A stretch of DNA of 64,000 nt, taken from contig CAWHHB010000005.1 in the NCBI GenBank assembly GCA_963828995.1, positions 249,338 to 313,337 of the forward strand, read 5' to 3'. The translations under genes and the position numbers were made by a program. The notes under the pieces are model-generated. The model searched no databases. It worked only from the letters and a program-made list of their open reading frames with translations, and was not told the DNA's origin. Source of the DNA: an uncultured Actinomycetota bacterium (GTDB lineage Bacteria; Actinomycetota; Actinomycetes; Actinomycetales; Dermatophilaceae). The first letter of the stretch is position 1. Each line of letters begins with the position of its first letter. Positions 887 through 62,695 of this stretch are shown piece after piece.

Positions 887-1530
887 CGGCTCCGACCACG
901 CCGCGGGTGCAGCGCGTGCTGACCACCGCGGAGTGGATGCGCCGGAGCACCGCGTCTGCCGACCTGCTGAGTGAACCGGAACGGCTTCGCGCACAACGCT
1001 TTCGGCGTGAGGATGACCGCCTGGACTTCATCGCTGCGCACCTGCTCGCACGCGAGGTCGTCGCGGAGCTGCTGGGGGTGGCGTCCGCTGAGGTGCGCCT
1101 GGCCCAGTCCTGTCCGGACTGCGGTGCCGACGACCACGGACCGCCGCGCGTGTCGGTCCCGGGGCACGCGGGTGTCTTCACCAGCTGGTCCCACAGTACG
1201 GGCCGGATCGGCGCGGTCGCCGCGCTGGCCCCGGTGGGCTTCGACCTCGAGCGCGTCACCAGCGGCCGGAGCGTCACCGAGGCCGAGGTGCACGTGCTCT
1301 CGCCGGGGGAGCTGGCGCAGGTGCGTGACGCCGCGGATCCACGGGTCGCGTTCCTGCACTGGTGGACCCGCAAGGAGGCACTGGTGAAGGTCGGTGCGAT
1401 CGAGCTCGACGACTTCGGCGGCACGGACCTGAGCGGGCACCCGCAGCGGTGGGGCAGCTGGGCGCTGTCGAGCTGGCACGACCGGGGGAACGACGTCGTC
1501 GCTGCGGTGGCCGCGACGCCCGGCTCCTGA
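883..1530 (+). CDS. Sfp/EntD-type 4'-phosphopantetheinyl transferase
   Basis: In-frame ATG at 883 inside ORF 73..1530. Family motifs are present: FTSWSHSTGRIGAVAA, VGFDLERV (GxDxE) and FLHWWTRKEALVKVG (WxxKEAxxK). It is convergent with the NRPS operon. Confidence 0.8.
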   Translation: MTAPTTPRVQRVLTTAEWMRRSTASADLLSEPERLRAQRFRREDDRLDFIAAHLLAREVVAELLGVASAEVRLAQSCPDCGADDHGPPRVSVPGHAGVFTSWSHSTGRIGAVAALAPVGFDLERVTSGRSVTEAEVHVLSPGELAQVRDAADPRVAFLHWWTRKEALVKVGAIELDDFGGTDLSGHPQRWGSWALSSWHDRGNDVVAAVAATPGS

Positions 1531-1588
1531 CCGGCCGCCGGTGGCGCCCGACGGCGGCGCGCAGTCGGGCCGCGGCGCCGTCGAGTGC

Positions 1589-2661
1589 CTAGCCGTACCG
1601 GCGCAGCTCGTGGAAGAAGTCGTCGACGACGTGCAGCTCGCCGGAGCGGGCCACCTCGTCGTAGACGAACTTGCCGACGGCGAGGTCGAGCACGCCGAGG
1701 CCGAAGGGCGAGAACACCACCGGTCCGGTCGGCCGGCACCGTCACCCGCCCGGCCATCACGTCGTCCAGCGTGCCGAGCAGGAAGTCCCGGTTGCCGGTG
1801 AGCTGCTCGACCAGGTGCGGCGAGGTGTTGGCCTTCAGGCAGTGCTCGACGTCGTCGACGACGTTGGTCGAGGCGAGCAGGATCTCCGGTGCGAGGTCGC
1901 GCAGCGACACGTGCAGCACCACCGGGTGGTGGTCGAACCACGACACGTCGCTGATGTGCGGCTGGCCGGCGACGGTGGCGAAGACCACCAGGTCGCTGGA
2001 GCGGATCAGCTGCTCGGCGCTGTCGTGCACGGTGATCGGGCCGGCGGTGCCCGACTGCTCGAGGTAGCCGCGGAAGCCGGCCGCGCTGTCGGCGGACAGG
2101 TCGTGCACGCCGATCTCGTCGAACGACCAGCCGGTGCCGGCCAGGAAGGTGTGGATGTAGCGGGCGATCAGGCCGACCCCGATGAACCCGACCCGCGTCG
2201 GGCGCGGCCGGCCGCGGCTGAGCCAGTCGGCCGCCAGCGCCGCCGACGCGGCCGTCCGGGTGGCGCTGATGATCGAGCTCTCCAGGCAGGCGAACGGGTA
2301 GCCGGTGTCGTGGTCGTTGAGGATCAGCACGGCCGAGGCCCGCGGGATGCCGGCCGCCACGTTCTCCGGGAAGCTGGAGATCCACTTCAGGCCGTCCACC
2401 CGCACCTGCCCGCCGATCGACGCGGGCAGCGCGATGATCCGGGACGACGGGCGGTCGGGGAAACGCAGGAAGTACGACGGCGGGTTCACCGAGTCACCGG
2501 CACCGTGCACCCGGTAGGTGGCCTCGACCAGGTCCACGATCTCGCTTCTCGCGCCCCTGCAGCGCCTGCTGGACCTGGGCGCCGGAGATCACCGCGAAGG
2601 GTGGCACCGTCACCTGCCCGGGCGTCGCGGACTCCGTTGCGGTGGAACGAGCAGTGGTCAT
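1589..2661 (-). CDS. sbnB: 2,3-diaminopropionate biosynthesis protein SbnB (ornithine cyclodeaminase family), frame-broken in this sequence
   Basis: The core lies in ORF 675..2537: VNPPSYFLRFPDRPSSRIIALPASIGG..GLKWISSFPENV..AVLILNDHDTGYPFACLESSIISATRTAASAALAA..FIGVGLIARYI. The N-terminus (MTTARS..FAVISGAQVQQALQGREK) and C-terminus (VVFSPFGLGVLDLAVGKFVYDE..FFHELRRYG, stop TAG 1591-1589) are in other frames. Frame breaks fall near 2545 and 1725. ATG 2661 overlaps an upstream TGA. Confidence 0.75.
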
Positions 2662-3666
2662 CGAGCGGTCACCTCGACGGTCGGCGAGCAGGTCGGCGAG
2701 CCGCACCGGGTCGGCCATCGCGACCAGCACCTCGCGCGGTCCCTCGAAGGCCTCCCGGCTGTGCGCGGTGCGGATGTTGTCGACCAGCATCAGGTCGCCG
2801 GCCTGCCACGGCTCGCGCGCGGTGTTGGCCTCGTAGACCTCGTTGAGCAGCTGCACGACGTCCTCGCCGATCGGGTCACCGTTGCCGAAGCGGGTGTTGA
2901 ACGGCAGCCCGTCGTCGCCGTAGACGTCGACCAGGTACTCGCGCACCTCGGGGTCGATCGTCCACTCGTTGAGGAAGGCGATCTGGTTGAACCAGCAGCG
3001 CTGGCCGGTGACCGGGTGACGCACCACGGCGCTGCGGCGCTGCCGGGTGCGCAGCCCACCGTCGGGCTGCCACTCGAACTCGATGGCGTTGGCGCGGCAG
3101 TAGCTCTCGACGGCGCGCACGGTCGTCGGTGCCGAACGCCTCGGCGACGGACGCCCCGATCTCGTCGTTGTAGCTGCGGGTGAGCAGCCAGCCCTCCCGC
3201 TCGAACCGCTCGACCAGCTCGGCGGGCAGGGCGTCGAGCACGGTCGGCGAGTCGGCCACCGCGGTCGCGCCGCCGTCGGTGGGCGCGCTCAGGCACGCGA
3301 ACAGCATCAGGCCGGGGAACTCGAGCGGCGTAGCTCAGCTCGTGGTGCATGCACATCGGCTGGTTCGGCGGCCACTTCGACGAGGAGTACACGCCGTCGG
3401 CGTAGGTCCGCCGGGACGCGAAGGCCTCCCGCTCGGTCATCAGAGCGGTGGCCAGCCGCCGGAAGACGGCACCGACCTCGGCCGCGTCGCGCAGCCCGAG
3501 ACCGCGGACCAGGACCGAGCCGTGCTCGGCGACGACGGCGCGCAGCGCGTCGCGGTGCTCGGCCGCCCAGCTCGGTCGCGTCGCCGGCGGCGTCGGCCCG
3601 CAGCATCGGAGGCCTGCCGGGTTGCCGGTCCACGTCGAGCAGTGACGCCGGGGATGAGGACGACAT
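2658..3666 (-). CDS. TauD/TfdA-family Fe(II)/2-oxoglutarate dioxygenase (NRPS-associated hydroxylase type), frame-broken
   Basis: Rebuilt from minus-strand segments. These are MSSSSPASLLDVDRQPG (ATG 3666, AAGGAA RBS), EHRDALRAVVAEHGSVLVRGLGL, MTEREAFASRRTYADGVYSSSKWPPNQPMCMHHELSYA (HxE), LMLFACLSAPTDGGATAVADSP, and VVRHPVTGQRCWFNQIAFLNEW..GDLMLVDNIRTAHSREAF (distal His/Arg). At least 4 frame breaks. The stop is assumed to be the TGA of the ATGA overlap at 2658-2661. Confidence 0.65.
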
Positions 3667-3688: not shown

Positions 3689-6600
3689 TCAGGAGGAGGC
3701 GAACAGGTCGGCGGCGCGCAGCACGGCCTGCGCCGCCTCGGTCGGACGGGTGCGCAGGAAGTAGTGGCCACCGTCGGCGATCTCGTGCAGGTCGACGTGC
3801 TCGGCCAGGACCTGCCAGTCGCGGTGCCGCTCGCGGGTACTCCGCCGTGATCGGGTCGTCGGCGGCGACGACCACGGTGACCGGGGCGGACAGCCTCACC
3901 GTCGGGCGGCGCGTCCAGGGCGTCGGCGAAGTAGCGGTGGGCGGACACGCAGTCGTGCCGGTAGGCGGCACCGACGTGCTCGGCGCGCTGCGCATCGAGC
4001 TCGCCGAGCTCGGTGTAGCCGCTGTCCGCGCTCAGCCCCGCGGCGATCTCGGCGTTGCTGCGCTGCGGTCAGCTCGGCGATGGCGGCGCGCCGGTCGGCG
4101 GCGTCGCCGAGCAGCTGCGCGCCGAGGAACACCCGCTGCACGTCGACCCCACGCTCCTGCAGCCGCCTGGCCGTCTCCACGGCGAACGCGGCGCCCGAGG
4201 AGTGGCCCCACAGCAGCACCCGGGCCAGCCCGAGACCGGTGATCTCGGCGACGACCTGCTCGACCACCTCCGCCATCGGCGCGAACGGCTCACGCTCGGC
4301 GGCCAGGTCGTGACCCGGGCAGCTCGACGGCGTAGACGGCCAGCCCGCTGCCGCGCAGCGCGCCGGCCATCGGCTGGAAGTTCACCGCGTTGCCGCCGGC
4401 GTACGGGAAGCACACGAGGACACCGGACGGCGGACCGTCCGGCTCGCTGACAGGGGCTGGAGCAGCCCGGACCGCTGCTCGCGACCTGCCGTCGACCAGC
4501 GCGGCCAGGTCGGCCAGGACCGGGTGGCGGGTGACGTCCTTGAGGGACACCGCCCGGTCCAGGGCGATGGCCAGCTTCACGGCCGACAGCGACGTGCCGC
4601 CCCGGTCGAAGAAGTGGTCCTGCCGGCCGATCTGGTCCTGCGGGATGCCGAGCACCTTGGCCCAGGCGGCCGCCAGCCGCTGCTCGGTCGGCGTCCTCGG
4701 CGCGTCGTAGTCCTCCTCGACGACGTCGAGCTCTCCGGCGAGCGCGGTCAGCGTCTTCCTGTCGATCTTGCTGTTGGCGGTCAGCGGCAGGCTCTCCCGC
4801 CAGTGGAAGGCCGACGGGACCATGTACTCGGGCAGCGACTGCGGCCAGCCGCTCCCGCAGGACGCTCGATCGTCGAGCGGCTGCTGGCCGGAGTAGAAGG
4901 CCACCAGGTGCTTGCTCTGGTCGGCCCGCTCGGCGACCACCACGGCGCCGTCGCGGACACCGGGCACGCGCAGCAGGGCGTTCTCGATCTCGCCGATCTC
5001 GATCCGGAAGCCGCGGATCTTGACCTGGGTGTCCCGGCGGCCGAGGAACTCCAGCTTGCCGTCCGGGCAGCCAGCGGCCGTAGTCGCCGCCGCGGTAGAG
5101 CCGCTCGCCCTCGCCGGTGCGGGTCGGTCAGGTAGGACTCGCCGGGTGCGCTCGGGGTCGTTGACGTAGCCGCGGCCGACGCAGACCCCGGAGAAGACGA
5201 TCAGCGCCGGGGGCGCCGAGCGGCACCGGCGACAGGTGCTCGTCGACGACGTAGACGTGCACGTTGTTGACCGGGCGGCCGAGCGGCACCCGCTCGCGCG
5301 TCCGGCACGCGGTCCATCACCTCGTGGTTGGTGTCGTCCGAGGTCTCGGTCAGCCCGTAGGCGTTGACCAGCTTGATCCCGGGCTGGGCCGCGAACCAGC
5401 GCTGCGCGAGCTCCTTCTTCAGCGCCTCGCCGGTGACCGACACGCACCGCAGGTCCGGCAGCTCGCGGGGGTGCTGCTCCAGGTAGGACAGGACGACCTC
5501 GAGGTAGGACGGCACGACCTGCAGCACGGCGACCCGGCCGTCGACGATCGTGTCGACGAACCGCTCGACGTCCAGGATCACCTCCTGCTCGACCAGCAGG
5601 GTCCGGCCGCCGACCAGGAGCGCGGAGACCAGCTGCCACAGCGAGATGTCGAAGCACTGCGGCGCGGTCTGGGCGACCACCTGCCCCTCGCCGATCTCCA
5701 GGTCGTCGATCTTGGCGTAGAGGTGGTTGAGCATGCCCGCGTGCTCGCACATCGCGCCCTTGGGCTCACCGGTGGAGCCGGAGGTGAAGTAGATGTAGGC
5801 GAGCTGGTCCGGCGCGACGTCGACGCCGAGGTCGCCGTCGGCGTGGTCCTCGTCGTAGGCCGTCGTCGACGAAGAGCGTCTGCGACCCCGGGCAGCGACG
5901 TCGAGGGCCTGGTCGAGCGTGGTCGTGCTGCCGGGTTCGGTCAGCACGAGCGCGCACCCGGCCCGGGAGAGCGTGGTCGCGATGCGATCGGCCGGGAAGT
6001 GCGGCTCGATCGGCAGGTACACGCCACCGGCCTTGAAGATCGCGAGGACGGCGGCCATCCAGTCCAGGTTGCGCTCGGTCACCACCGCGACGACGCCCTC
6101 GCGGCGCAGCCCGCGCGCCAGCAGGGCTCGTGCCGAGCCGGTTGGCGCGGGCGTTGAGCTCCCGGTAGGTCCACTGCCGGTCGCCGTGCACGGCCGCGAC
6201 GGCGTCCGGGTGCGCCGCGCACCCGCTGCTCGAACAGCTCGTGGAACCGGCGGTCCGGCAGCTCCCGGCGCGGTCCGGCCAGCCCGTCGAGCTGGAAGTC
6301 GCAGCTCCTCGGCGGAGAGCAGGCTCTGCCGCCGGTGCTCGGCGTCCGGGTCGGCGGCGATCAGCGCGAGCGCGGTGAGGTGGTAGCCGGCGATCCTGGC
6401 GGCGCACTCGGCGTCGAGCACGTCGGTCCGGTACCGCAGCCGCAGCACGAGCCGGCCGTCGTGCTGGCGAGATCCCGACCCACAGCACGGTGTCCTCGGC
6501 CAGGTCGCCGCCGTCGCCGGTCGGGTCGAACACGGTCTCGAACGACGGCTCGGTCAGGCCCAGCTCGCGCCGGAGGTCGTCGACCGGGAAGTCCTGGTGC

Positions 6601-6966
6601 GCCAGCAGCTCCGACTCGACCCGATGGGCGTCCAGCACCAACGCCCGCCACGACTCGGGCTCGGTCGTCAGCCGGCAGGGCAGCGGCGGGCGCGCCGTGC
6701 CGGGCGACGTAGCCGGTCGCGACCTCGCGCTCGCCGGACAGCGCGGCCAGCACCTTGGCGTGCGCGGCCAGCAGCACCGAGCTGAGCGGCACCCCCAGCT
6801 CGTCCGCCAGCCGGCGCAGCGCCGCCACGAGGTCGTCCGGGATCGTCGCCTCGTGCTCGGCGACGCCCGGCACCGGGTCGAGGGTCCACCGCGGGATCGC
6901 GGTGAACCCGCCGGCGGCGAGCACACCGCGCCAGAACTCCCGGCCGGCCTCAGTATGCGTTCCCAT
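3689..6966 (-). CDS. Single-module non-ribosomal peptide synthetase: ~200-aa C-domain-like N-terminus, then A, PCP and TE; heavily frame-broken
   Basis: The start is MGTHTEAGREFWRGVLAAGGFTAIPRWT (ATG 6966). A-domain motifs: LAYIYFTSGSTGEPKG, QCFDISLWQ, NAYGLTETS, GKLEFLGRRDTQVKIRGFRIEIGEIE and PLTANSKIDRK. PCP: DHFFDRGGTSLSAV. TE: VLVCFPYAGGNAVNF and LLWGHSSGAAFA (GxSxG), with C-terminus ..GGHYFLRTRP..DLFASS and stop 3691-3689. I count more than 15 frame switches among ORFs 6361..6984, 5766..6926, 5201..6448, 4290..5750, 3896..4276 and 3678..3995. Confidence 0.8.
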
Positions 6967-6980
6967 CAAGTCTTTCCCTT

Positions 6981-9859
6981 TCACTTACCTTGGCAGGTGC
7001 TACCTGCTGCTGACCAGAGCGGCGCCGGCGGTTGTTCTTGCTGGAGCGGCGGGCCGGCAGGGTGACCGGGTGGTCCCGCATCTCCCTGGCCGGGTTGCCG
7101 CCCCACTGGGCGTGCGGCGGGACCTCCTCGCCCTTCATCAGGAAGGAGTCGGGGGCGAGCACCGCGCCGTCGCCCATCGTCACGCCGTAGTGGACGAAGG
7201 CGCCGACCCCGAGCGTGCAGCCGGCACCGATCGTGATGCGGTCGGACTTGAAGGCGCCGTCCTCCTGCGAGTGGCACTGGATCGACGCTGCCCGCGTTGA
7301 GCGTGCAGTCGTCGCCGATGGTGACCAGCGTCCTTCTCGGTCAGCTAGCAGCCGTCGTCGAAGACCCGGCGGCCGATCCGGACACCCAGCAGCCGCCAGA
7401 TCAGGTTCTTGAACGGGGTGCCGTTGAAGACCTGGAGGTAGGTCGACCGCGGGCACCTTCCAGAAGCGTTCGTGCCGCCAGAAGCTGCGGTCGTAGATCG
7501 AGCAGAACTGCGGCCGCAGCGGCCGGAACGCCGTCGACGGCCCGCTCGACCAGCACGAAGTAGACGACGGTGAACAGCGAGGACTGAGCGACGTTGGCCA
7601 GCGCGATCGCCGCACGCGCCGAGCGCGTCGTAGAGGTCCGACGGCGGCCAGGCCGAGCAGGGTGACGCACGAAGACGTAGAGCCACCGCACCAGCAGGAA
7701 CAGCCCGATGGTGACGAGGTTGTGCCTGTTCTTGGCGGCGAGGCGGCGGCGCAGCTCGTCCGCCGCTCGCCAGGTGGTCGAACGTGCTGTCCCGCTCGAC
7801 CGATGCGCGGGATCTCGAAGCTGGGCGAGCCGAGCAGCCCGACGCCCTCGCGGACCTTCCCGTCGATCGGGACCATGACCTTCGTCGCGAGCAGGCAGTT
7901 GTCGCCCGTCCTGCCCTGCGACGGGTAGGCGATGTGGTTGCCGAGGAAGTTGTGCGCCCCGATCGACGCCCGGGACACCCGGAACGACGTGCTCGAGAAG
8001 TCGGCGTTGATGATCGACAGCCCGTCGGCGACCATCGTCCCGCTGCCGACTGAGCTCAGGTACGGGTTCTCGTGCTTCACCTCCGTGCCGAAGTTCGACC
8101 CGGTCTGCTCGCACGTGCGACGAGGTCGTACCCGAGCCACGCGCAGGTAGTGGACGATGTAGGAGCTGTCGCCGAAGAGGTACGGTGAAGAACTTGAGGT
8201 TGGTCATGCGCGCGATCGCCCGGTGGACCGAGTAGTGGAAGCCGTACAGCGGGATAGACCTTGTCCGGCTTGATGAGCGCGGTTGAGCAGGCGCGGGACG
8301 GTGACCACGACGAGCAGGCCGACGAGCAGCGAGCCGAAGAAGAGCACGAGGGAGATGACCAGGGCGTCGACGTAGAACGCCCGGGTCGTGAGCGACCACG
8401 GTCGCCGGGTCCAGCAGCGCCGGCGAGCGCAGGGACCGCGGTGAGCAGCATGATCACGGCCGCCGAACGCCAGCGGCAGGTACGAGCGACCAGCACGTTG
8501 AGCAGCTGCAGCGACGGTGTAGCCGACCCTGCGCAGCGTGCCGCAGTCGGCGGGCTCGACCCTCCGGTAGTCGACCGTCGGTGCGCTGCGCCGGGGACCC
8601 GTGCCAGCGCTCGCCGGCGGGCACGGCCTGCCCGGCGTGCAGCGACGGAGGCGTGGCCGAGCTGGGCCCCGTCGCCCATCGAGGTGTCGATGTCGAGCAC
8701 CGTCTCCTCGCCGACGAACACGTCCCTGCCGAGGGTGACCGGGCCGGTCTGGATCACGCCCGTGCGTGGGCCCGGTAGCAGCTGAGGAACGAGTCCTTGC
8801 GGATGACCGTGCCGTCGCCGATGGTGAGCAGGTCGGTGCACACCGGCACGTTCCGGGAGAGGATCGCGACGCCCCGCCCGATCTTCGCGCCCAGCGCCCG
8901 CAGGTAGAGCGAGTACAGCGGCGAGCCGACGAACAGCAGACCAGCGGGTTCGACCGGACCAGCGTCTTGACGAGCCAGAAGCGGACGTAGGCCAGGCTCC
9001 AGACGCGGATCTGCCGCGGCTTCCACCGACCGATCGAGCACCCACTTGGCCAGCGATCGGGAAGGTGCACAGGACGACGAACAGCGCGCAGCGCCGAAGA
9101 CGACCGACCGCAGGTAGATGTCGACCACGCCCGGTGCCGGCCGAGATCCACTCGTAGCCCGCGGACCACGAGCAGCGCGGCGAGGTAGGAGTACCCGAGG
9201 AAGACCAGCAGCTGCAGCGCCCCGCACAGGACGCCATCCGCAGGCCGGCGGCCCGTGCCGGCGCCGGTGCCGACCACCTCGGCCGGCGACCGGCGAGTCC
9301 GGCACGGCAGGGGCGGGCACGGTGTCGGCGAGCGCCGTCGCCAGGCTGCTGATCGTCGGGTGCTGGTAGATGTCCTTCATCGACACCGACGGCAGGTCGG
9401 CCCGCTTCCGCACCCGGGCGCAGAACTGGGCCATCACCATCGAGTCGGCGCCGAGGTCGTCGAAGAAGTGCGCGTCGACCGGCACGCGGTCGACGTGCAC
9501 GATCCCGGCCAGCACCTCGGCGAGGGTCGTCGTGAGAGTCCGCCCGACCGGCACGGGCGCGGCGTCCACGAGCGCCGTCGCCAGGCTGCTGATCGTCGGG
9601 TGCTGGTAGATGTCCTTCATCGACACCGACGGCAGGTCCTCCCGCTTCCGCACCCGGGCGCAGAACTGGGCCATGACCAGCGAGTCGGCGCCGAGGTCGT
9701 CGAAGAAGTGCGCGTCGACCGGCACCCGCTCGACGTGCACGACGTCAGCCAGCACCTCGGCCAGGGACCGCTCCAGGCTGGTCTCCGGGCGTCGTACCTG
9801 ATCTGGTTGGTTGCCGGTGCGGACAGGTCGGCGGTCAGGATCCCGGCGGACTTCTTCAC
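6981..9859 (-). CDS. PCP-PCP didomain fused to a Pls/PosA-type NRPS terminal region (three hexapeptide-repeat domains interleaved with TM helix pairs); no adenylation domain; frame-broken
   Basis: GTG 9859 has an AAGGAG RBS 8 nt upstream. Two carrier domains each carry FFDDLGADS(L/M)VMAQF. Hydrophobic pairs then alternate with beta-helix-like segments. These segments are IGRGVAILSRNVPVCTDLLTIGDGTVIRKDSF..GPVTLGRDVFVGEETVLDIDTSMGDGAQLGH, then ENPYLSSVGSGTMVADGLSIINADFSSTSFRVSRASIGAHNFLGNHIAYPSQGRTGDNCLLATKVMVPIDGKV, then IGRRVFDDGC..IQCHSQEDGAFKSDRITIGAGCTLGVGAFVHYGVTMGDGAVLAPDSFLMKGEEVP. The stop is either 6981 or 6950, depending on the last frame break. Confidence 0.7.
9330..9809. repeat. 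Tandem 240-bp direct repeat (two units) encoding the two PCP domains
   Basis: Unit 1 (9330-9569) and unit 2 (9570-9809) both begin gagcgccgtcgccaggctgctgatcgtcgggtgctggtagatgtccttcatcgacaccgacggcaggtc. They stay near-identical for ~175 bp and then diverge. The period is exactly 240 bp, i.e. 80 codons. Confidence 0.9.
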
Positions 9860-9912: not shown

Positions 9913-10944
9913 TCAGGTGACGAGGCTGCCGGTGACGGCGTCGGCGGTCTGGTCCAGGCTGTCCGGCGACCAGCCCTCAGCCCCGATCGACGTGAGCAGG
10001 TCCTTGCCGTAGAGGTCCTGCAGCCAGTTGGTCTGGTAGACGGTGTCGAGGTAACGCTCGCCGAGGTCCGGCGCGATGGCCACCGCGGTGAGGTCGCTCG
10101 CCGTCGTGCTGGGCCAGCCAGCCCATGGCCCCACTGACCACCGTGCCGGTCGAGCCGCCGAACAGGAACCCGCGGCGGGCGAGGCGGTGGCAGGCCCGGA
10201 CGGTGTCCACCTCCTCGACGCGCACGACCTCGTCGACGTACGACTCGTCGAGCAGCGGCGGACGCATGCTCATGCCCAGACCGGGGATCATCCGGCGGCC
10301 CGGTGCGTCGCCGAAGGTCACCGAGCCGACGGCGTCGACGGCGACGACCCGCACGGGCCGGTGCCACTCACGGAAGTAGCGCGCGCAGCCCATCAGGGTC
10401 CCGGTGGTGCCGGCCCCGACGAACAGCACGTCCAGCTGCGGGAAGCTGGCGGGCGATCGCCGGCGCCGTCGTGCGGTAGTGCGCCTTCCAGTTGCTCGGG
10501 TTGGTGTACTGGTTGAGCCAGACGTACCGCTCGTCGGAGGCGCACAGCGCGACGCACGTAGTCGATCCGCGCGCCGAGGAAGCCGCCGACGGCATCGGGC
10601 TCGGCGACGATGTGCACGTGGCTGCCCAGCGCCTCCATCAGCCGCCGGGTCGACAGGTTGCAGCGGGGGTCGGTCACGCACAGGAACCGGTAGCCCCTGC
10701 TGGCGGCGATCATGCTCAGCGCCACGCCGAGGTTGCCCGACGAGGACTCGACCAGGATCGAGTCCGGCCGCAGGATGCCGTCGCGCTCGGCGGCCTCCAC
10801 CATCTCGGTGGCGGCCTTGAGCTTGATCGAGCCGGCGAAGTTGAAGCCCTCGCACTTCAGGAAGAGCGAGTGCCCGAAGATGGACCGAAGGTCGACGTAG
10901 AGCTCGTCCTCGTTGAACGCCTCGGGGGCGGATATGACTGTCAC
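9913..10944 (-). CDS. sbnA: 2,3-diaminopropionate biosynthesis protein SbnA (PLP-dependent cysteine synthase family), frame-broken
   Basis: GTG 10944 is preceded by GAGGAGG 6 nt upstream. Sequence: VTVISAPEAFNEDELYVDLRSIFGHSLFLKCEGFNFAGSIKLKAA (PLP Lys)..ESSSGNLGVALSMIAASRGYRFLCVTDP..ERYVWLNQYTNPSNWKAHY..VGAGTTGTLMGCARYF..GFLFGGSTGTV..AIAPDLGERYLDTVY. At least 3 frame breaks (ORFs 10393..11031, 10368..10595, 9977..10855, 9913..10134). Confidence 0.8.
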
Positions 10945-11422
10945 TATGGCCTCCTCATGTAACGCAGCGGGTCGGTGTCGATCTGCTCTGACATCGACTG
11001 TGCCGCCGGAGCCCCGGCTGCCGACAGGCACCCCAGGGCTGGGAGGGCCGCCACCTTGGGTCCGTCTTCGTCTACCCCGGGTCCGCCGTCCGCCGCCCGA
11101 GCAGGATCGACGGGCCGTCGCTGCTGGCGCTCAAGAAGGAACCTGGCCCCCGGCGCCTGACGGACAAAGGGGCTGGTTGGGGTGGTAACAGACACGAAGT
11201 TCTCCTCGCGGTGGTCATCCGTGCGCACCTTGCGGGCGTCATCTGCTGGTGTGTCCCTCAAGGCTCACCGACTCGCCGCCGAGGGCTCTACCGCATACGA
11301 CGCACGTTGACCTCCCGAAAACTTCCCTCACCCGGGCGTCTCGCGCTGTGTACGACTTGCACGGCCTTGTGCGGTTTGTCTTGATTGGGAGGGTCTTGGA
11401 CGCTCTGGGCTCAGGCGGCGGG

Positions 11423-12676
11423 TCAGGACCGGCGGCGCGAGGGTGGCCGTGAGTCCACCAGATCGCGCGCCAGACGACAGCTCGTGGACACCAGTGCCTC
11501 GAGCGGTCCCCGGGGCTCCGTACGGCTCCAGACGCCGGCGAACGCCAGGCAGCCCAGGACCAGCGCTGCGTAGAGCACCACGGGATGGTCCTCGAGCGGG
11601 TACACCGACAGCACCAGGATGTGGGCCGTGTACAGCGTCAGGGCCATGCTGCCGGCAACCGCGACGAGCCGGACCAGCCGCCCGTGCCGGCGCGACCGGG
11701 CCACCAGCAGGCAGACTCCCAGCACCGCCATCGCCACCCCGAGGTCGTGCAGCATCCGCAGCGGGGTGACCGTGTACGGCGCGCGCTGCGCCAGCCACCA
11801 CCACGAGAGGACGGGGTCGGGGTCCCAGAGGACCACGTTGCGCGCCTGGGACGCGCCCAGGTGGGCCGGGGCGGCGGCCCGCAGGTGCTGCAGGCCGCCG
11901 AGCTGGAGCATCAGCAGGGAGGCGACCAGCCACGACACGAGCGCCAGGGCGGCCCCGCCGGCAGCGAGCCTGGCCGCCACCCGCCGCGCGGAGAGGTCCA
12001 GCCGCCCGATCGCGATCCCGGCGCAGATGAAGGCGAGATACTCCACCACCGGGTAGGAGCCGCTCACGAGCAGCGTCGTCGCCAGCTCGACCGGATGGGC
12101 CAGCGCGCCGACCGTGGGCTCGTCCGTGTTCAGGTCGGCGCCGAACGAGGCCAGGACGACCAGGGGCGCGATCACCACGAGCGACAAGGCAATTGACGCC
12201 AGGGCTCGCGAGCTCAACCGGATCAGGGGGATCGCCAGCAGGAACATCGCGCCGTAGTAGGGCAGGATCACGTCCGCGGGCGGGTCGGTGTAGTTGAGGA
12301 CGAGACCGATGAGGCCGATCAGCAGGGCGCGGGTCGCCATCGAGGCGGCCGTGCCGGCGTCCGGCCAGCCGGGCCCAGCGCCGGCCCGTGAGCTGGAGCT
12401 GCTCCGCTGGGCGGCCAGCGCCAGGCTCACGCCGGCCAGCAGGACGAAGGTCGCCAACGCGTGTCCGGCCACCAGCTGCTGGGTGCGGCTGGGGGAGTAG
12501 TCGCTGTGCAGCGTCGCGAAGACGTGCACCGCCATCATGCCCATCAGCGCCACGCCCCGCGCGAGGTCGACGCCCAGGACCCGCCCCCGTCGCGGCCGCA
12601 GGCCGGCCGGCTCGCCCACCCGGTCGGGCGGGGGCGGAACGATGTCGGCGCGGTCTGCGTCGGCGTGCTCGGCCAT
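11423..12676 (-). CDS. Polytopic membrane protein, DUF418/DUF1624-like (acyltransferase-like)
   Basis: Intact ORF 11423..12790. The likely start is MAEHADADR at 12676. It has multiple hydrophobic helices (LGVDLARGVALMGMMAVHVF.., ..LTLYTAHILVL..). This is a family-level guess from sequence pattern only. Confidence 0.45.
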   Translation of the reverse strand: MAEHADADRADIVPPPPDRVGEPAGLRPRRGRVLGVDLARGVALMGMMAVHVFATLHSDYSPSRTQQLVAGHALATFVLLAGVSLALAAQRSSSSSRAGAGPGWPDAGTAASMATRALLIGLIGLVLNYTDPPADVILPYYGAMFLLAIPLIRLSSRALASIALSLVVIAPLVVLASFGADLNTDEPTVGALAHPVELATTLLVSGSYPVVEYLAFICAGIAIGRLDLSARRVAARLAAGGAALALVSWLVASLLMLQLGGLQHLRAAAPAHLGASQARNVVLWDPDPVLSWWWLAQRAPYTVTPLRMLHDLGVAMAVLGVCLLVARSRRHGRLVRLVAVAGSMALTLYTAHILVLSVYPLEDHPVVLYAALVLGCLAFAGVWSRTEPRGPLEALVSTSCRLARDLVDSRPPSRRRS

Positions 12677-12860
12677 GTCGGCTCCCGTCGGTCGAGGACT
12701 CCCCGTTTCGCCCGGTCTGCGGCGGGCACCGGTGTCGTCGAGTGATTTGATTGCGTTCAGGGAGAATGCCATTCGCGCTGTCAGGATCACTGGGAGGGAA
12801 GTTACGTGGTTTCCGCCGAGAGCGACAGAGCCCGAAGGGTGAACGGGTCATCCTTGGGAC

Positions 12861-13415
12861 ATGGACATCGACTGGGCATACGAGCTCGTGGAGCAGGTTG
12901 ACTGGCACTGGCGTGAACAGCTGCGTCCCCGGTACGACGGGCTGAGTGACGAGGAGTACTTCTGGGAGCCGGTGGCCAACTGCTGGAACGTCCATCCCCG
13001 GGGACAGGGTCGGGCGCGGATCGCGGCAGGCGCAGGGGATTTCGTCATCGACTTCGACTACCCGGAACCCTCGCCCGTGCCCGTCACGACCATCGCCTGG
13101 CGGTTGGCACACATGGTCGTGGGCGTGCTCGGTGCCCGGGTGGCCAGCCACTTCGACGGTCCCGCCGTCGACTACCAGAGCTTCGACTACGCGGGTACCG
13201 CTGAGCGGGCGCTACAGCAGCTCGACGGCGTCTACGCAGCGTGGCGCAGCGGTGTCATCGGTCTCGGGGAAGAGGGGCTCGCCCGACCGTGCGGACCTGC
13301 GGAAGGACCGTTCGCGGCCTATCCGATGGCGGCGCTGGTGCTGCACATCAACCGCGAGATGCTGCACCACGGCGCTGAGGTCGCCCTGCTGCGCGACCTG
13401 TACGCCAACCGCTGA
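12861..13415 (+). CDS. DinB-family protein
   Basis: Intact 184-aa ORF with a DinB-like four-helix pattern: WHWREQLRPRYDGLSDEEYFWEPV..TIAWRLAHM..HINREMLHHGAEVALLRDLY. Confidence 0.6.
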   Translation: MDIDWAYELVEQVDWHWREQLRPRYDGLSDEEYFWEPVANCWNVHPRGQGRARIAAGAGDFVIDFDYPEPSPVPVTTIAWRLAHMVVGVLGARVASHFDGPAVDYQSFDYAGTAERALQQLDGVYAAWRSGVIGLGEEGLARPCGPAEGPFAAYPMAALVLHINREMLHHGAEVALLRDLYANR

Positions 13416-13523: not shown

Positions 13524-14962
13524 ATGTTCGAGTCCAGCGTGGATGAGGTGGCGGCCGGGGATCTGGCCGGGCTGGCCGCCGCGCTGCTGGGGCTGACCGC
13601 CCGGGACGTGCTGGGTGGTGATCTGGCCTCGGCGCAGGCGGTGGTCGCGGCCACGCAGCGGGTGCTGAACGCGGTCTCGGCGGTGCAGGTGCTGGGGATC
13701 GAGGCGTGGGCGCGGCGGACCGGGTGAGGGCATCGCGGCGGACCGGGCGGCCTGGGGTGCGGCGCACCCGGGGCGGGCCTATCCCGGGCCGCGGGATGAG
13801 CACGAGTTCATGGACTGTGAGCTGGCGCCGGTGCTGCACGTGGCCCCGCGCACCGCGCAGCGGACCTATGAGACGGCCCGGACGGTGTGCGCGGTGCTGC
13901 CGGCCACCTGGGCGGCGATGCGGGCCGGTGACCTGGAGCCGGCCCGGGCCGAGGCGATCGCCCAGGAGGTGCCCCGGCTGCGCCCGGAGGTCTGCGCCCG
14001 GGTCGAGCAGGTGCTGTTTCCGGCCGTGCTGGGCCTGCCGACCGCCCGGGTGCGGGCCGCGGCCCGGCGGGCGGTCGCGGTGGCCGACCCGGACGAGGTC
14101 GCCGAGCGGGCGGCCCGGGCCCGGGCGGCCCGGTTCGTCCTGGTCCGCCCCGGCCTGGATCCGGGGATGAGCGAGTGGGTCGCCGCGCAGCCGGCCGAGT
14201 CCAGCGCCGCGGCCTGGGCCGCGGTGGACGAGCTGGCGCACGCCTACGTCGCCGACGGCGAGCACCGGTCGCTGGAGCCAGGCCCGGGCCGACGCGATGA
14301 TCGACCTGATCCTGGGCCAGGCCACGATCACCACCACGGTCGACCTCAGCATTCCGCTCAGCGCCCTGACCGCGGTGAGCGCGCCGACCGCCCCGACCGG
14401 TCCCGGCGAGGCCACCCGCGGCGACGCTGACCGCGACGCGGCCGGTGTCGGTGGCGGGCAGGGTGGCGGCTGCTCCTGCGGCGGCCACCGATCCCGGGGG
14501 CTTGCCGAGGTGGTCCTGCAGCTGCCGCGGGTCGGGATCGAGGCGGCCCGGGTCGGGCTGATCCCGACCGAGGCGCTGACCGCGCTGCTGACCGACCCCG
14601 ACACCCGGTACCGGGCCGTGCTGCACGACCCGGACACCGGCGCCCTGCTCGCCGTCGACGCCCGGGTCTACCGCCCCCACGAGGCGACCGCCCGGTTCGT
14701 CCGCCGCCGCGACGGCACCTGCCGCTTCCCCGGCTGCGCCACCCCCGCCGCCCGCGCCGACCTCGACCACGTCACCACCTTCGCCACCGGCGGAGACACC
14801 GACCCACCCAACCTGATCACCCTCTGCCGGCGCCACCACCGCCTCAAGCACCACGGCGGCTGGACCCTGACCATGACCCCCACCGGCCACGCCACCTGGA
14901 CCAACGGCATCGGCCAGCGCTACCAAACCCACCCCCTCGACCACCGCCACCTCGCCGCCTAG
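13524..14962 (+). CDS. DUF222 domain / HNH endonuclease (REP13E12-like family), frame-broken
   Basis: Three frame segments: 13524..13727, 13810..14430 and 14297..14962. The C-terminal HNH region is RFVRRRDGTCRFPGCATPAARADLDHVTTFATGGDTDPPNLITLCRRHHRLKHHGGW. Frame breaks fall near 13725 and 14285. Confidence 0.75.
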
Positions 14963-15032
14963 CCAGGCGGCGCGGGGCACGGGTCAGCCTGACCAGCGTG
15001 CCGGCTCCCGCTGGTGCTGCCACTCTAAGCAG

Positions 15033-15557
15033 ATGGCGCTGTCGGTCTGCCTGCTGTTCGACCCCAGGGGCGAGCACGCGGTCCGTGCCCTCTGGTCCCG
15101 TCTGGAGGGGCACGGCGTGCCGACCCTGGCCACGCACACCCATGGTCGGCACCACCCGCACCTGTCCTACGCGGTCCTGCTGCGCTGGGACCTCCAGCTC
15201 GTGCAGGATGCGCTGGCCGTCCTGCCCGACGGGGGACCGTTCCCGATGACGTTCCAGGGCATGGTCGCCTTCCCCCGGGGCCGCGCCTGCCTCGCGCCGT
15301 CGTTGCCGGCGGCGGTGGTGGCGCGACAGGAGGCGGTGTCCACCGCCCTCTCGGCCTGTGGCGCGCTGGTGCACCACCACTACGAGCCCGGACGGTGGGT
15401 CCCGCACTGCTCGCTGTCGCCGCGCGCCAACGGTGGAGCGCTGCCCGTGGTGGCCCAGGCGGTCAGCGACGTGCTGCCGCTGACGGTCCATGCCGCCCGC
15501 GTCGCGCTGGTCGACAGCGCGACCGGTCAGACGTGGCTGCTGCCCACGACGCCGTGA
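15033..15557 (+). CDS. 2H phosphoesterase / 2'-5' RNA ligase superfamily protein
   Basis: Intact 174-aa ORF with two HxS/T-type motifs (HPHLSY and VPHCSL) at the typical spacing. Confidence 0.55.
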   Translation: MALSVCLLFDPRGEHAVRALWSRLEGHGVPTLATHTHGRHHPHLSYAVLLRWDLQLVQDALAVLPDGGPFPMTFQGMVAFPRGRACLAPSLPAAVVARQEAVSTALSACGALVHHHYEPGRWVPHCSLSPRANGGALPVVAQAVSDVLPLTVHAARVALVDSATGQTWLLPTTP

Positions 15558-15722
15558 GTCATCAACAGTCCGAAACCCTGGGGGAGTGCGCTCGTCGGCG
15601 CTGGTCGTGAGGGTGCGCCCTGCCGAGGCGAGGCGAGGCGGGGTGGGGCTGGCCGAGCTGGCGTTGCTCGGTGCAGGGCGAGGCGGTTCGGTGCAGGGCG
15701 AGGCGGTCGCTGCAGGCGGTGG

Positions 15723-16680
15723 TCAGGGCTTGGGCTGGATGACGGCGACCGGTCCGCCCGCCGCGTGCAGGACCGCATGGCTCACCGAGCCGAGGAGCAT
15801 GCCGGTGAAGCCACCGTGACCGCGTGAGCCCACGACGACGATCCCGGCGTCTGCCGATGCGGCGGCGAGCGCCTGACCGGCCCGGCCCTCGACGGCCTGG
15901 CCGGCCACGTCCAGGTCGGGGTGACTCGCCTGCACCATGCCGACCGCCTCGGCGACGACCTGCTCCGCGCGCTCACGTTTGGCGCTGTGCAGGCCGGCTG
16001 TCGTGGGGCGCCGCGTCCCAGTACGCGCGAGCCCACGTCTCGCTGGCGGGCACCTGCCACACCGAGATGACCGTGAGCGGCGCCTCCCAGGTGGCCGCCA
16101 GGTCGGCTGCGAACGTCACGGCCGACGCGGCCGCGAGCGAGCCGTCCACCCCGACCACGACGGGGCGGCCGGGTCCGGGCGGGAGGGCGGGACCGGTGGG
16201 GACGAGCACCACCGGGCAGCAGGCGTGGGCGATGACGGTGAGCGACCTGGCGCCGAGCAGGGCCGAGGTGAAGGCGCCGTGCTCGGCGCGACCGAGCACC
16301 AGCAGGCTCGCCTGCCGGGACGCCTCGACGAGGGCGCCGGCGGCACCACCCGTGGCCGGGAAGCTGCTCGCCTGCACCCCGGGCCCCACCGACAGTGCGC
16401 GCGAGACGCCCTCGTCCGCCACCGCGGTGGCCCGCTCCAGGGCGACGTCACGCAGGTGCTCGGTGCTCGCGCCGGGCCAGACGGGCACGGACGAGTAGTC
16501 CACGGCCGTCAGCACCCGCACGCCGGTGTGCGACTGCGCCGCGGCCGCGGCGGCCCAGTCGACCGCAGCGGAGGCGGAGGGGGAGCCGTCGTACCCGACG
16601 ACGACCGGCTTGGGACTCTGCGTCTCGCGCGGCCGGTCGGGTGCGGGGGCGTCGGCAGGCTCGTGCTCGGCAGCGGTCAT
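15723..16680 (-). CDS. Tandem universal stress protein (two UspA domains), one frame break
   Basis: Domain 1: PVVVGYDGSPSASAAVDWAA..LLVLGRAEHGAFTSALLGARSLTVIAHACCPVVLV. Domain 2: VVVGVDGSLAAASAV..IVVVGSRGHGGFTGMLLGSVSHAVLHAAGGPVAVI. ATG 16680. The frame break is near 15960. Confidence 0.7.
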
Positions 16681-24840: not shown

Positions 24841-24914
24841 GGACGTATAGCTCAGTTGGTTAGAGCGCTCGCTTCACACGCGAGAGGTCAGGGGTTCGAG
24901 TCCCTTTACGTCCA
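24841..24914 (+). tRNA. tRNA-Val (anticodon CAC)
   Basis: 74-nt cloverleaf. Acceptor GGACGTA/TACGTCC, D arm GCTC-AGTTGGTTA-GAGC, anticodon arm CTCGC-TTCACAC-GCGAG, T arm AGGGG-TTCGAGT-CCCTT. CCA is not encoded. Confidence 0.9.

Positions 24915-62621: not shown

Positions 62622-62695
<74 letters not shown>

Follow-up and report, generated by a model that had tools for sequence, protein, structure and literature searches.

How is a polymerase of the Pls/PosA family supplied with its monomer when it has no adenylation (A) domain of its own? To our knowledge, all characterized synthetases of cationic homopolyamino acids (CHPAs), whether for epsilon-polylysine, poly-2,3-diaminopropionate (poly-Dap, PDAP), poly-2,4-diaminobutyrate (poly-Dab, PDAB), poly-ornithine or poly-beta-lysine, are single proteins of the order A-T-(TM/C), in which an A domain and a carrier (T) domain precede a terminal region of transmembrane (TM) helices and soluble C domains. 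We analyzed a 64,000 nt stretch of DNA (hereafter the window, whose numbering is used throughout) from an uncultured bacterium of the Dermatophilaceae in the phylum Actinomycetota (GCA_963828995.1, contig CAWHHB010000005.1), in which a first-pass annotation had described the gene at 6981-9859 as encoding a Pls/PosA-type terminal region with two carriers and no A domain. This description holds, and the gene is confirmed as a real A-less T-T-Pls/PosA-type synthetase. Homologous proteins and genome loci are cited below by our own P and L numbers.

A synthetase gene with two carrier domains and no A domain

The gene and its parts are as follows:

6981..9859, minus strand: T-T-(TM/C1-C3) Pls/PosA-type synthetase gene without an A domain; ~939 aa once the frame is corrected
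9570..9764, minus strand: carrier domain 1; Pfam PF00550 stretch, aa 33-97; LGADS, Ser60 at ~9683-9681
9318..9512, minus strand: carrier domain 2; second PF00550 stretch; LGADS, Ser140 at ~9443-9441
7088..9229, minus strand: TIGR02353 terminal region, from NCBIfam, hydropathy, the AlphaFold model of P0003 and Foldseek
~9246-9042, 9028-8491 and 8485-8291, minus strand: TM1-2, C1 and TM3-4 of the terminal region
8281-7737, 7721-7539 and 7526-7085, minus strand: C2, TM5-6 and C3 of the terminal region

The NCBIfam equivalog-domain model TIGR02353 ('Pls/PosA family NRPS', for nonribosomal peptide synthetase) matched residues 210-914 over its whole profile (1-695 of 695) with 829 bits against a cut-off of 423. 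In Pfam, the protein matched PP-binding twice and, within its final soluble domain, Hexapep once, and it gave no AMP-binding match. Hydropathy of the corrected protein placed six TM helices in three pairs between the three soluble domains C1-C3. An AlphaFold model of the closest homolog, P0003, which is 80% identical to the window protein (mean pLDDT 73, pTM 0.70), folds each of the two carriers into a four-helix bundle and has three beta-helix domains and three TM hairpins, in agreement with the three soluble segments between hydrophobic helix pairs that the annotation had read. Foldseek against the PDB matched solely left-handed beta-helix acetyltransferases, and a PDB search by sequence and fold returned no solved structure of a TIGR02353 region, just carrier domains and beta-helix acetyltransferases. 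The T units form a 225 nt direct tandem repeat (9302-9526 and 9542-9766, 91% identical), and the serine of LGADS is invariant across 40 homologs.

Pls of Streptomyces albulus and PosA of Acinetobacter baumannii (PMC10522769) share with the window protein the terminal domain, the six TM helices in three pairs, three soluble domains of ~180 aa and a T domain upstream. Unlike the window protein, they are A-T-(TM/C) enzymes with Glu at position 3 of the A-domain specificity code, and PosA is encoded in a single-gene operon. The window gene retains the full TIGR02353 region, the six TM helices with C1-C3 and, directly upstream, T domains with the phosphopantetheine serine; the N-terminal A domain in cis is missing, as is Glu3, the nearby A domain having Trp at this position. 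Because the cis A domain is the one family-defining feature that is lacking while the others are present, the protein is a variant of the CHPA synthetase kind.

The gene starts, as annotated, at a GTG (9859-9857) with AAGGAG at 9873-9868, eight bases upstream, and an in-frame TAG (9862-9860) immediately before it; the N-terminus VKKSAGILTADL aligns with MKKSTEILTADL of P0003. The upstream sbnA-like gene stops at TGA 9915-9913, leaving a gap of 53 nt rather than the 54 nt counted before. At the other end, TGA 6983-6981 is a plausible stop, which overlaps a possible GTG of the next gene; the C-terminal tail is unconserved. A hidden A domain between sbnA and the carriers is impossible, because the gap is so short and clean independent assemblies are equally A-less: in L001 and L002, the same A-less gene follows a PALP gene at a distance of ~50 nt. 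Together with the in-frame TAG and the single A domain found by tblastn in the 64 kb (~4608-6300, on the next gene, where the annotation had placed it), these findings led us to reject a hidden A domain or a misassembly.

As deposited, the gene is not one open reading frame (ORF): no single ORF spans 9859-6981 on the minus strand, and the coding frame switches about every 100 nt in three-frame translations and in plots of G+C at third codon positions (GC3). Every domain call therefore rests on the frame-corrected translation. Plain ORF listing and ordinary tblastn were defeated by the frame breaks and were replaced with a GC3-based stitcher, which required ~30 shifts for this gene, and with frameshift-aware protein-to-DNA alignment, which gave 33 indel events and one in-frame TGA against P0003 and yielded 939 aa. 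Some 33 breaks and a stop within 2.9 kb might be taken to mean that both the broken frame and the absent A domain reflect misassembly or a decaying gene. We consider this scarcely credible. Nearly all the indels are of one kind, 30 of the 34 length differences from three orthologous genes being +1 nt insertions in the window; the corrected protein retains 143/143 invariant and 175/176 near-invariant columns of a 40-homolog alignment; and GC3 is near 100% within each frame piece (window G+C, 70-76%). The independent assemblies, the 53 nt gap and the in-frame TAG argue against it as well. A six-frame Viterbi path over the whole window revealed two hot zones of frame switching, one at 2-10 kb, which is the Dap/Pls cluster, and one at 42-46 kb, which is secD/secF with ~23 switches; elsewhere there were 0-4 switches per 2 kb, with one 2 kb bin at 6. 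The essential secD and secF are thus broken to the same degree, and as a cell could not live without them, the breaks are errors of the sequence and do not reflect decay of the gene; a pseudogene was rejected. No homopolymer or motif context was evident at the insertions, within the limit set by alignment ambiguity. The genes apt and relA come after the secD/secF zone.

Distribution of A-less genes and remnants of the cis A domain

A protein homology search gave >4800 matches, which are named at NCBI 'Pls/PosA family non-ribosomal peptide synthetase' or 'phosphopantetheine-binding protein'. According to precomputed Pfam matches, 113 of the best 120 homologs have no AMP-binding domain and seven have an N-terminal one. 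T domains number one in 13 of these proteins, two in 62, three in 44 and six in one, a range that suggests frequent unequal recombination. As the T domains are conserved and vary in number through tandem duplication, they are evidently selected for and are not relics. In a scan of one genome per species, relatives were confirmed at at least 559 of 597 matched stretches; in ~70 of the 80 best genome loci, the ORF contains nothing A-like, and in 10 it retains a remnant, whole or partial. From a representative library clustered at 50% identity, in which 1093 clusters matched at E <= 1e-30, we took the 80 representatives with a complete TIGR02353 region among the 150 best-scoring clusters. An N-terminal A domain is present in 39 (degenerate in a few), a partial one in 6 and one downstream of the terminal region in 3, while 32 have no A domain at all; 7 of these 32 also have no T domain and are maybe truncated gene calls. 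The A-less relatives P0014 (L006), P0124 and P0131 carry extra C-terminal domains, namely two peptidoglycan-binding domains, TPR repeats or a class-III aminotransferase.

A-less, double-T variants, whose existence and neighbors the annotation had proposed to survey, are thus widespread. Its phrase 'unusual split design' is apt when set against the characterized Pls, PDAP synthetase and PosA, but not in sequence space, where ~70/80 loci and 32/80 representatives are A-less. The annotation had also named what would speak against it, an architecture both common and already characterized; commonness is borne out, whereas we found no evidence of prior characterization, and the open-access literature yielded no account of an A-less enzyme of the Pls type or of the five-gene cluster presented below. 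A published family survey retained only proteins of 1100-1800 aa, so that A-less members like the window protein were missed. As far as the searchable literature shows, the A-less design is common in sequence space and apparently uncharacterized.

The cis A domain has left traces in the closest relatives. In more distant, canonical relatives, the core motifs, A3 included, are intact and the code reads DFEC[LIM]SxVTK, with the Phe2/Glu3 signature of PDAP/PDAB synthetases (PMC10522769). In contrast, the N-terminal A domains of the nearest relatives have a ruined A3 (e.g. YTSDSDGRPTG or YTAGANGRLRG) and an altered A8, and they lack both the C-terminal subdomain and the A10 lysine or are plainly truncated; such decaying domains are carried by P0046/L016, P0103, P0064, P0053, P0026, P0028, P0023, P0122, P0125 and P0134. 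The vestigial domains of the clade still read D-F-E-C/S-L-S-x-V-T, as do the nearest intact canonical ones, and Glu3 survives nearby solely in these dead remnants. L016 has a dead cis A domain, yet the partner NRPS described below, TauD and SbnB are present. In a neighbor-joining tree of terminal regions, which has long terminal branches and no support values and is taken as a hint only, the window groups with A-less, dead-A and fused forms. The best reading of these sequences is that the clade descends from a canonical synthetase of the PDAP/PDAB type with the order A-T-(TM/C1-C3), whose cis A domain decayed here and was then lost.

A conserved partner gene and its predicted substrate

The synthetase gene is the second of five genes on the same strand, in the order SbnA-like, T-T-Pls, an NRPS of ~1085 aa, a TauD-family oxygenase and SbnB-like. 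Its four neighbors are:

9913..10944, minus strand: SbnA-like pyridoxal phosphate enzyme; tblastn 93% to SbnA of L001; GTG 10944 with an AGGAGG ribosome-binding site
3689..6984, minus strand: partner NRPS, truncated C-A-T-TE; ~1085 aa; probable start ATG 6966; stitched translation
2660..3650, minus strand: TauD/TfdA-family Fe(II)/2-oxoglutarate oxygenase; stitched translation; an ortholog matches PF02668 at 4.7e-45
1589..2613, minus strand: SbnB-like dehydrogenase; tblastn 81-91% to orthologs

In Pfam, the partner NRPS matched Condensation, AMP-binding, PP-binding and Thioesterase (TE), the first over positions 190-279 of 456, which is the C-terminal subdomain only; this truncated condensation domain is written C* below. 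The core motifs of its A domain are intact (FTSGSTGEPKG, NAYGLTE, GRRDTQVKIRG and NSKIDRK), and its TE has the nucleophile motif GHSSG with Ser. The window copies of SbnA and SbnB are frame-broken and match their orthologs at 75-93% and 78-91%, respectively (84% and 90% to L050). L050, from Streptomyces sp. NBC_00873, is a clean orthologous cluster in which the NRPS has the same C*-A-T-TE layout and both enzymes pass the NCBIfam equivalog models (SbnA, TIGR03945, 385 > 350; SbnB, TIGR03944, 419 > 327). The best PDB relative of the TauD ortholog is At3g21360.

The ten-residue code of the partner A domain, DIWQSTADDK, recurs unchanged in 11 of the 12 orthologous clusters that we compared, which come from several genera; the exception is L024 (DIWQSTCRDQ). 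The crystal structure of SulM-A3 bound to L-Dap has the code DVWEMNADDK, in which Asp8 and Asp9 hold the beta-amine, a two-Asp mode that its authors found in no other known gene cluster (PMC12042044). The partner A domain has D1, W3, A7, D8, D9 and K10 in common with SulM-A3, with the same spacing of the code residues, and differs at positions 4-6 (Q-S-T against E-M-N). SulM itself, a modular NRPS that makes the monobactam sulfazecin, is not linked to any polymerase of the Pls type. As the partner code resembles that of SulM-A3 and SbnA and SbnB are encoded in the same operon, L-Dap is most likely the monomer.

The partner A domain (>=60% identical) lies within 2.5 kb downstream of the Pls-type gene in 63 of 73 evaluable genome loci, and these 63 are accompanied by TauD in 62, SbnB in 59 and SbnA in 59. 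They come from Streptomyces, Pseudonocardia, Micromonosporaceae, Propionibacteriaceae, Streptosporangiaceae and others. The partner always retains its own T domain, and a TE is fused to it in 46 of 58 scorable loci and absent in 12, L002 among them. In three homologs, the two proteins are fused: P0171 is T-Pls-C*-A-T-TE, P0127 is T-Pls-C*-A, and P0148 is T-Pls-C*-A-T-TE-TauD, a protein of 2309 aa encoded by one uninterrupted 6.9 kb ORF (L082:6001-12930) on a 37 kb contig. The P0148 gene is followed by a P450 gene, and SbnA and SbnB are not encoded within 6 kb. Sister clusters in L011 (9971-15777), L022 and L041 encode T-T-Pls, TauD and then a stand-alone A protein of 581 aa without a carrier, and the T domains of the Pls protein are the only carriers found beside it. 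The sister A code is DASVATMRSK, the sister TauD is 77-81% identical to that of the window, and SbnA and SbnB were not found within 10 kb of the sister-cluster genes (L011 type).

Several further features adjoin the cluster. Upstream of sbnA, 11423-12790 on the minus strand encodes an HGSNAT/Acyl_transf_3/DUF418 membrane protein, which could be a modification or export partner; homologs adjoin the cluster in L001 (87% identical), L002, L008, L019 and L026 and lie upstream of Pls-type genes in L059, L064 and L072. Between this gene and sbnA, a peptide (...GPGVDEDGPKVAALPALGCLS...MSEQIDTD.LRY.RRP*) is conserved in the window (10944-11261, minus strand) and in L001 (886-1137). It ends at the sbnA start in a region with weak coding signal and may be a small upstream ORF or a leader. 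A 4'-phosphopantetheinyl transferase-like gene (~1016-1589, plus strand; PF01648, WTRKEA motif) faces the cluster. Its homologs gave 0 matches beside the orthologous clusters in the loci examined, and as it is not conserved there, it was left out of the system. There were no Rfam matches close to the cluster, the sole ones in the window being two tRNA genes (24841-24914 and 62622-62695). The window represents core chromosome, since it also carries apt, relA, parA and scpA/B-like genes; by its best matches, its source would probably be an actinomycete resembling Pseudonocardiaceae.

Proposed loading in trans and its alternatives

On balance, we think it likely that the window encodes a membrane-embedded polymerase of the CHPA type, formerly of the PDAP/PDAB type, which forms amide bonds iteratively and is loaded in trans with L-Dap made by SbnA and SbnB and probably tailored by TauD. 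SbnA and SbnB would make L-2,3-diaminopropionate, as suggested by the family membership established on their orthologs. To judge from its code, the A domain of the adjacent C*-A-T-TE protein would activate L-Dap and, besides its own T domain, would load in trans the two that stand in tandem on the Pls-type protein. The TauD-family oxygenase would most likely tailor the carrier-bound monomer; the fusion of TauD to A-T-TE in P0148 hints at such an action on the carrier. By homology with Pls, the three beta-helix domains would form amide bonds between T-bound units and a free amine and so build an isopeptide oligomer or polymer derived from Dap; the product is probably a Dap-based polymer. The conserved adjacency, the fusions, the decayed cis A domains and the carrier-less A domain of the sister cluster strongly suggest that the neighboring A domain acts in trans.

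Several points weigh against this proposal. The evidence for trans loading is genomic. The partner has its own T domain and usually a TE, which could indicate a separate reaction or another hand-over route. The code matches that of SulM-A3 at 6/10 positions, and position 6 is Thr here but Asn in SulM. Beta-hydroxylated Dap is an unstable hemiaminal, leaving the TauD step without obvious chemistry, and TauD is ~80% identical in both cluster types, yet the A codes differ completely (DIWQSTADDK and DASVATMRSK), which is difficult to square with a single common substrate. Finally, 10 of 73 loci carry A-less Pls genes without the partner, and L017 has two convergent A-less genes (9947-12871, plus strand, 974 aa; 13664-16270, minus strand, 868 aa) with no A domain among the neighboring ORFs scanned. 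Genes for an AraC regulator and an esterase lie near the L017 pair.

The partner's own T domain invites a different route, in which the A domain loads only that T domain, TauD tailors the monomer there, and the monomer is then passed to the Pls-type protein, either with the partner T domain itself serving C1-C3 as the donor or through transfer of the aminoacyl group to the Pls T domains by the TE-like domain. The partner is never without its T domain, P0148 has TauD fused right behind A-T-TE, and the truncated condensation domain before the A domain could be a docking platform for the oxygenase, an idea derived from studies of siderophore beta-hydroxylases. Carrier-to-carrier shuttling of aminoacyl groups by the alpha/beta-hydrolases SyrC and CmaE is established. 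These shuttles use a Cys nucleophile, whereas the GHSSG motif with Ser is typical of hydrolytic TEs, and the TE is not an obligatory shuttle, as it is absent in 12/58 scorable loci. Moreover, the A domain of the sister cluster stands alone without a T domain, so that, as far as that locus shows, the Pls T domains can only be loaded directly. We regard such a relay as unlikely, although less so than the two explanations that follow.

It is improbable that the Pls-type protein is no homopolymer synthase at all and instead attaches one or a few Dap-derived units to another acceptor, e.g. a cell-envelope component or a small-molecule scaffold. The soluble domains do resemble left-handed beta-helix O/N-acetyltransferases, recombinant Pls esterifies polyols (PMC9606270), some relatives have C-terminal peptidoglycan-binding, TPR or aminotransferase domains, and the Acyl_transf_3/DUF418 membrane protein adjoins the cluster in several loci. 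However, every characterized TIGR02353 enzyme yields a homo-oligomer or polymer, the equivalog-domain model was matched at twice its cut-off, and genes for building an acceptor are not conserved in the cluster. More improbable still is that an A domain from another part of the genome, e.g. that of a canonical CHPA synthetase, loads the T domains, with the neighboring NRPS belonging to a separate pathway. Some genomes do have several paralogs, A-containing and A-less ones among them (P0103 and P0037 on one contig; three loci in Pseudonocardia yunnanensis), and the partner is missing in 10/73 loci; against this stand the adjacency in 63/73 loci across several families, the three independent fusion architectures and the coincidence of cis A loss with the presence of the partner. 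Loading in trans by the adjacent A domain thus remains our preferred explanation.

Known systems resemble the cluster in part. The PDAP synthetase of S. albulus PD-1 (PMC4668381) likewise combines TM helices with three soluble domains in tandem in its TIGR02353-type region and receives L-Dap from homologs of SbnA and SbnB, there NjxA and NjxB. It is, however, a single A-T-(TM/C) polypeptide that activates Dap, whereas the window protein has no A domain, two T domains and a separate, putatively Dap-type A domain of unrelated code on the C*-A-T-TE protein, and TauD is conserved in the cluster; as a canonical A-T-(TM/C) enzyme, PDAP synthetase is not the window system. In the streptothricin pathway (ORF5, ORF18 and ORF19; PMC9606270), amino-acid activation and carrier are likewise divided between proteins, and a diamino acid is joined into an isopeptide oligomer, but the stand-alone A protein ORF19 forms the amide bonds itself, without a TIGR02353 domain.

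A branched Dap polymer was reportedly described by Takehara in 2021, for which no gene assignment was found in the open-access literature. More tentatively than the proposal as a whole, we suggest that the cluster may define a split class of CHPA synthetases, in which an unrelated, SulM-like A domain specific for Dap would have taken the place of the ancestral cis A domain, TauD would oxidatively tailor the carrier-bound monomer before polymerization and the product would be a poly-amino acid that the searched literature has not assigned to any gene.

Genome mining for these polymers is built on the single-protein A-T-(TM/C) architecture and the A code in cis and misses this large conserved group, whose cluster is carried by at least 63 species-representative genome loci. 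The group is a natural experiment in which cis A domains are dead, truncated or absent and are replaced by a trans partner, and its fused forms could serve for direct expression. If trans loading and tailoring are true, the range of the two-Asp mode of Dap binding, so far known solely from SulM, would be widened, and the polymerase would be separable from monomer selection, which would be useful for engineering cationic isopeptide polymers, compounds that serve as food preservatives, antimicrobials and cell-penetrating carriers.

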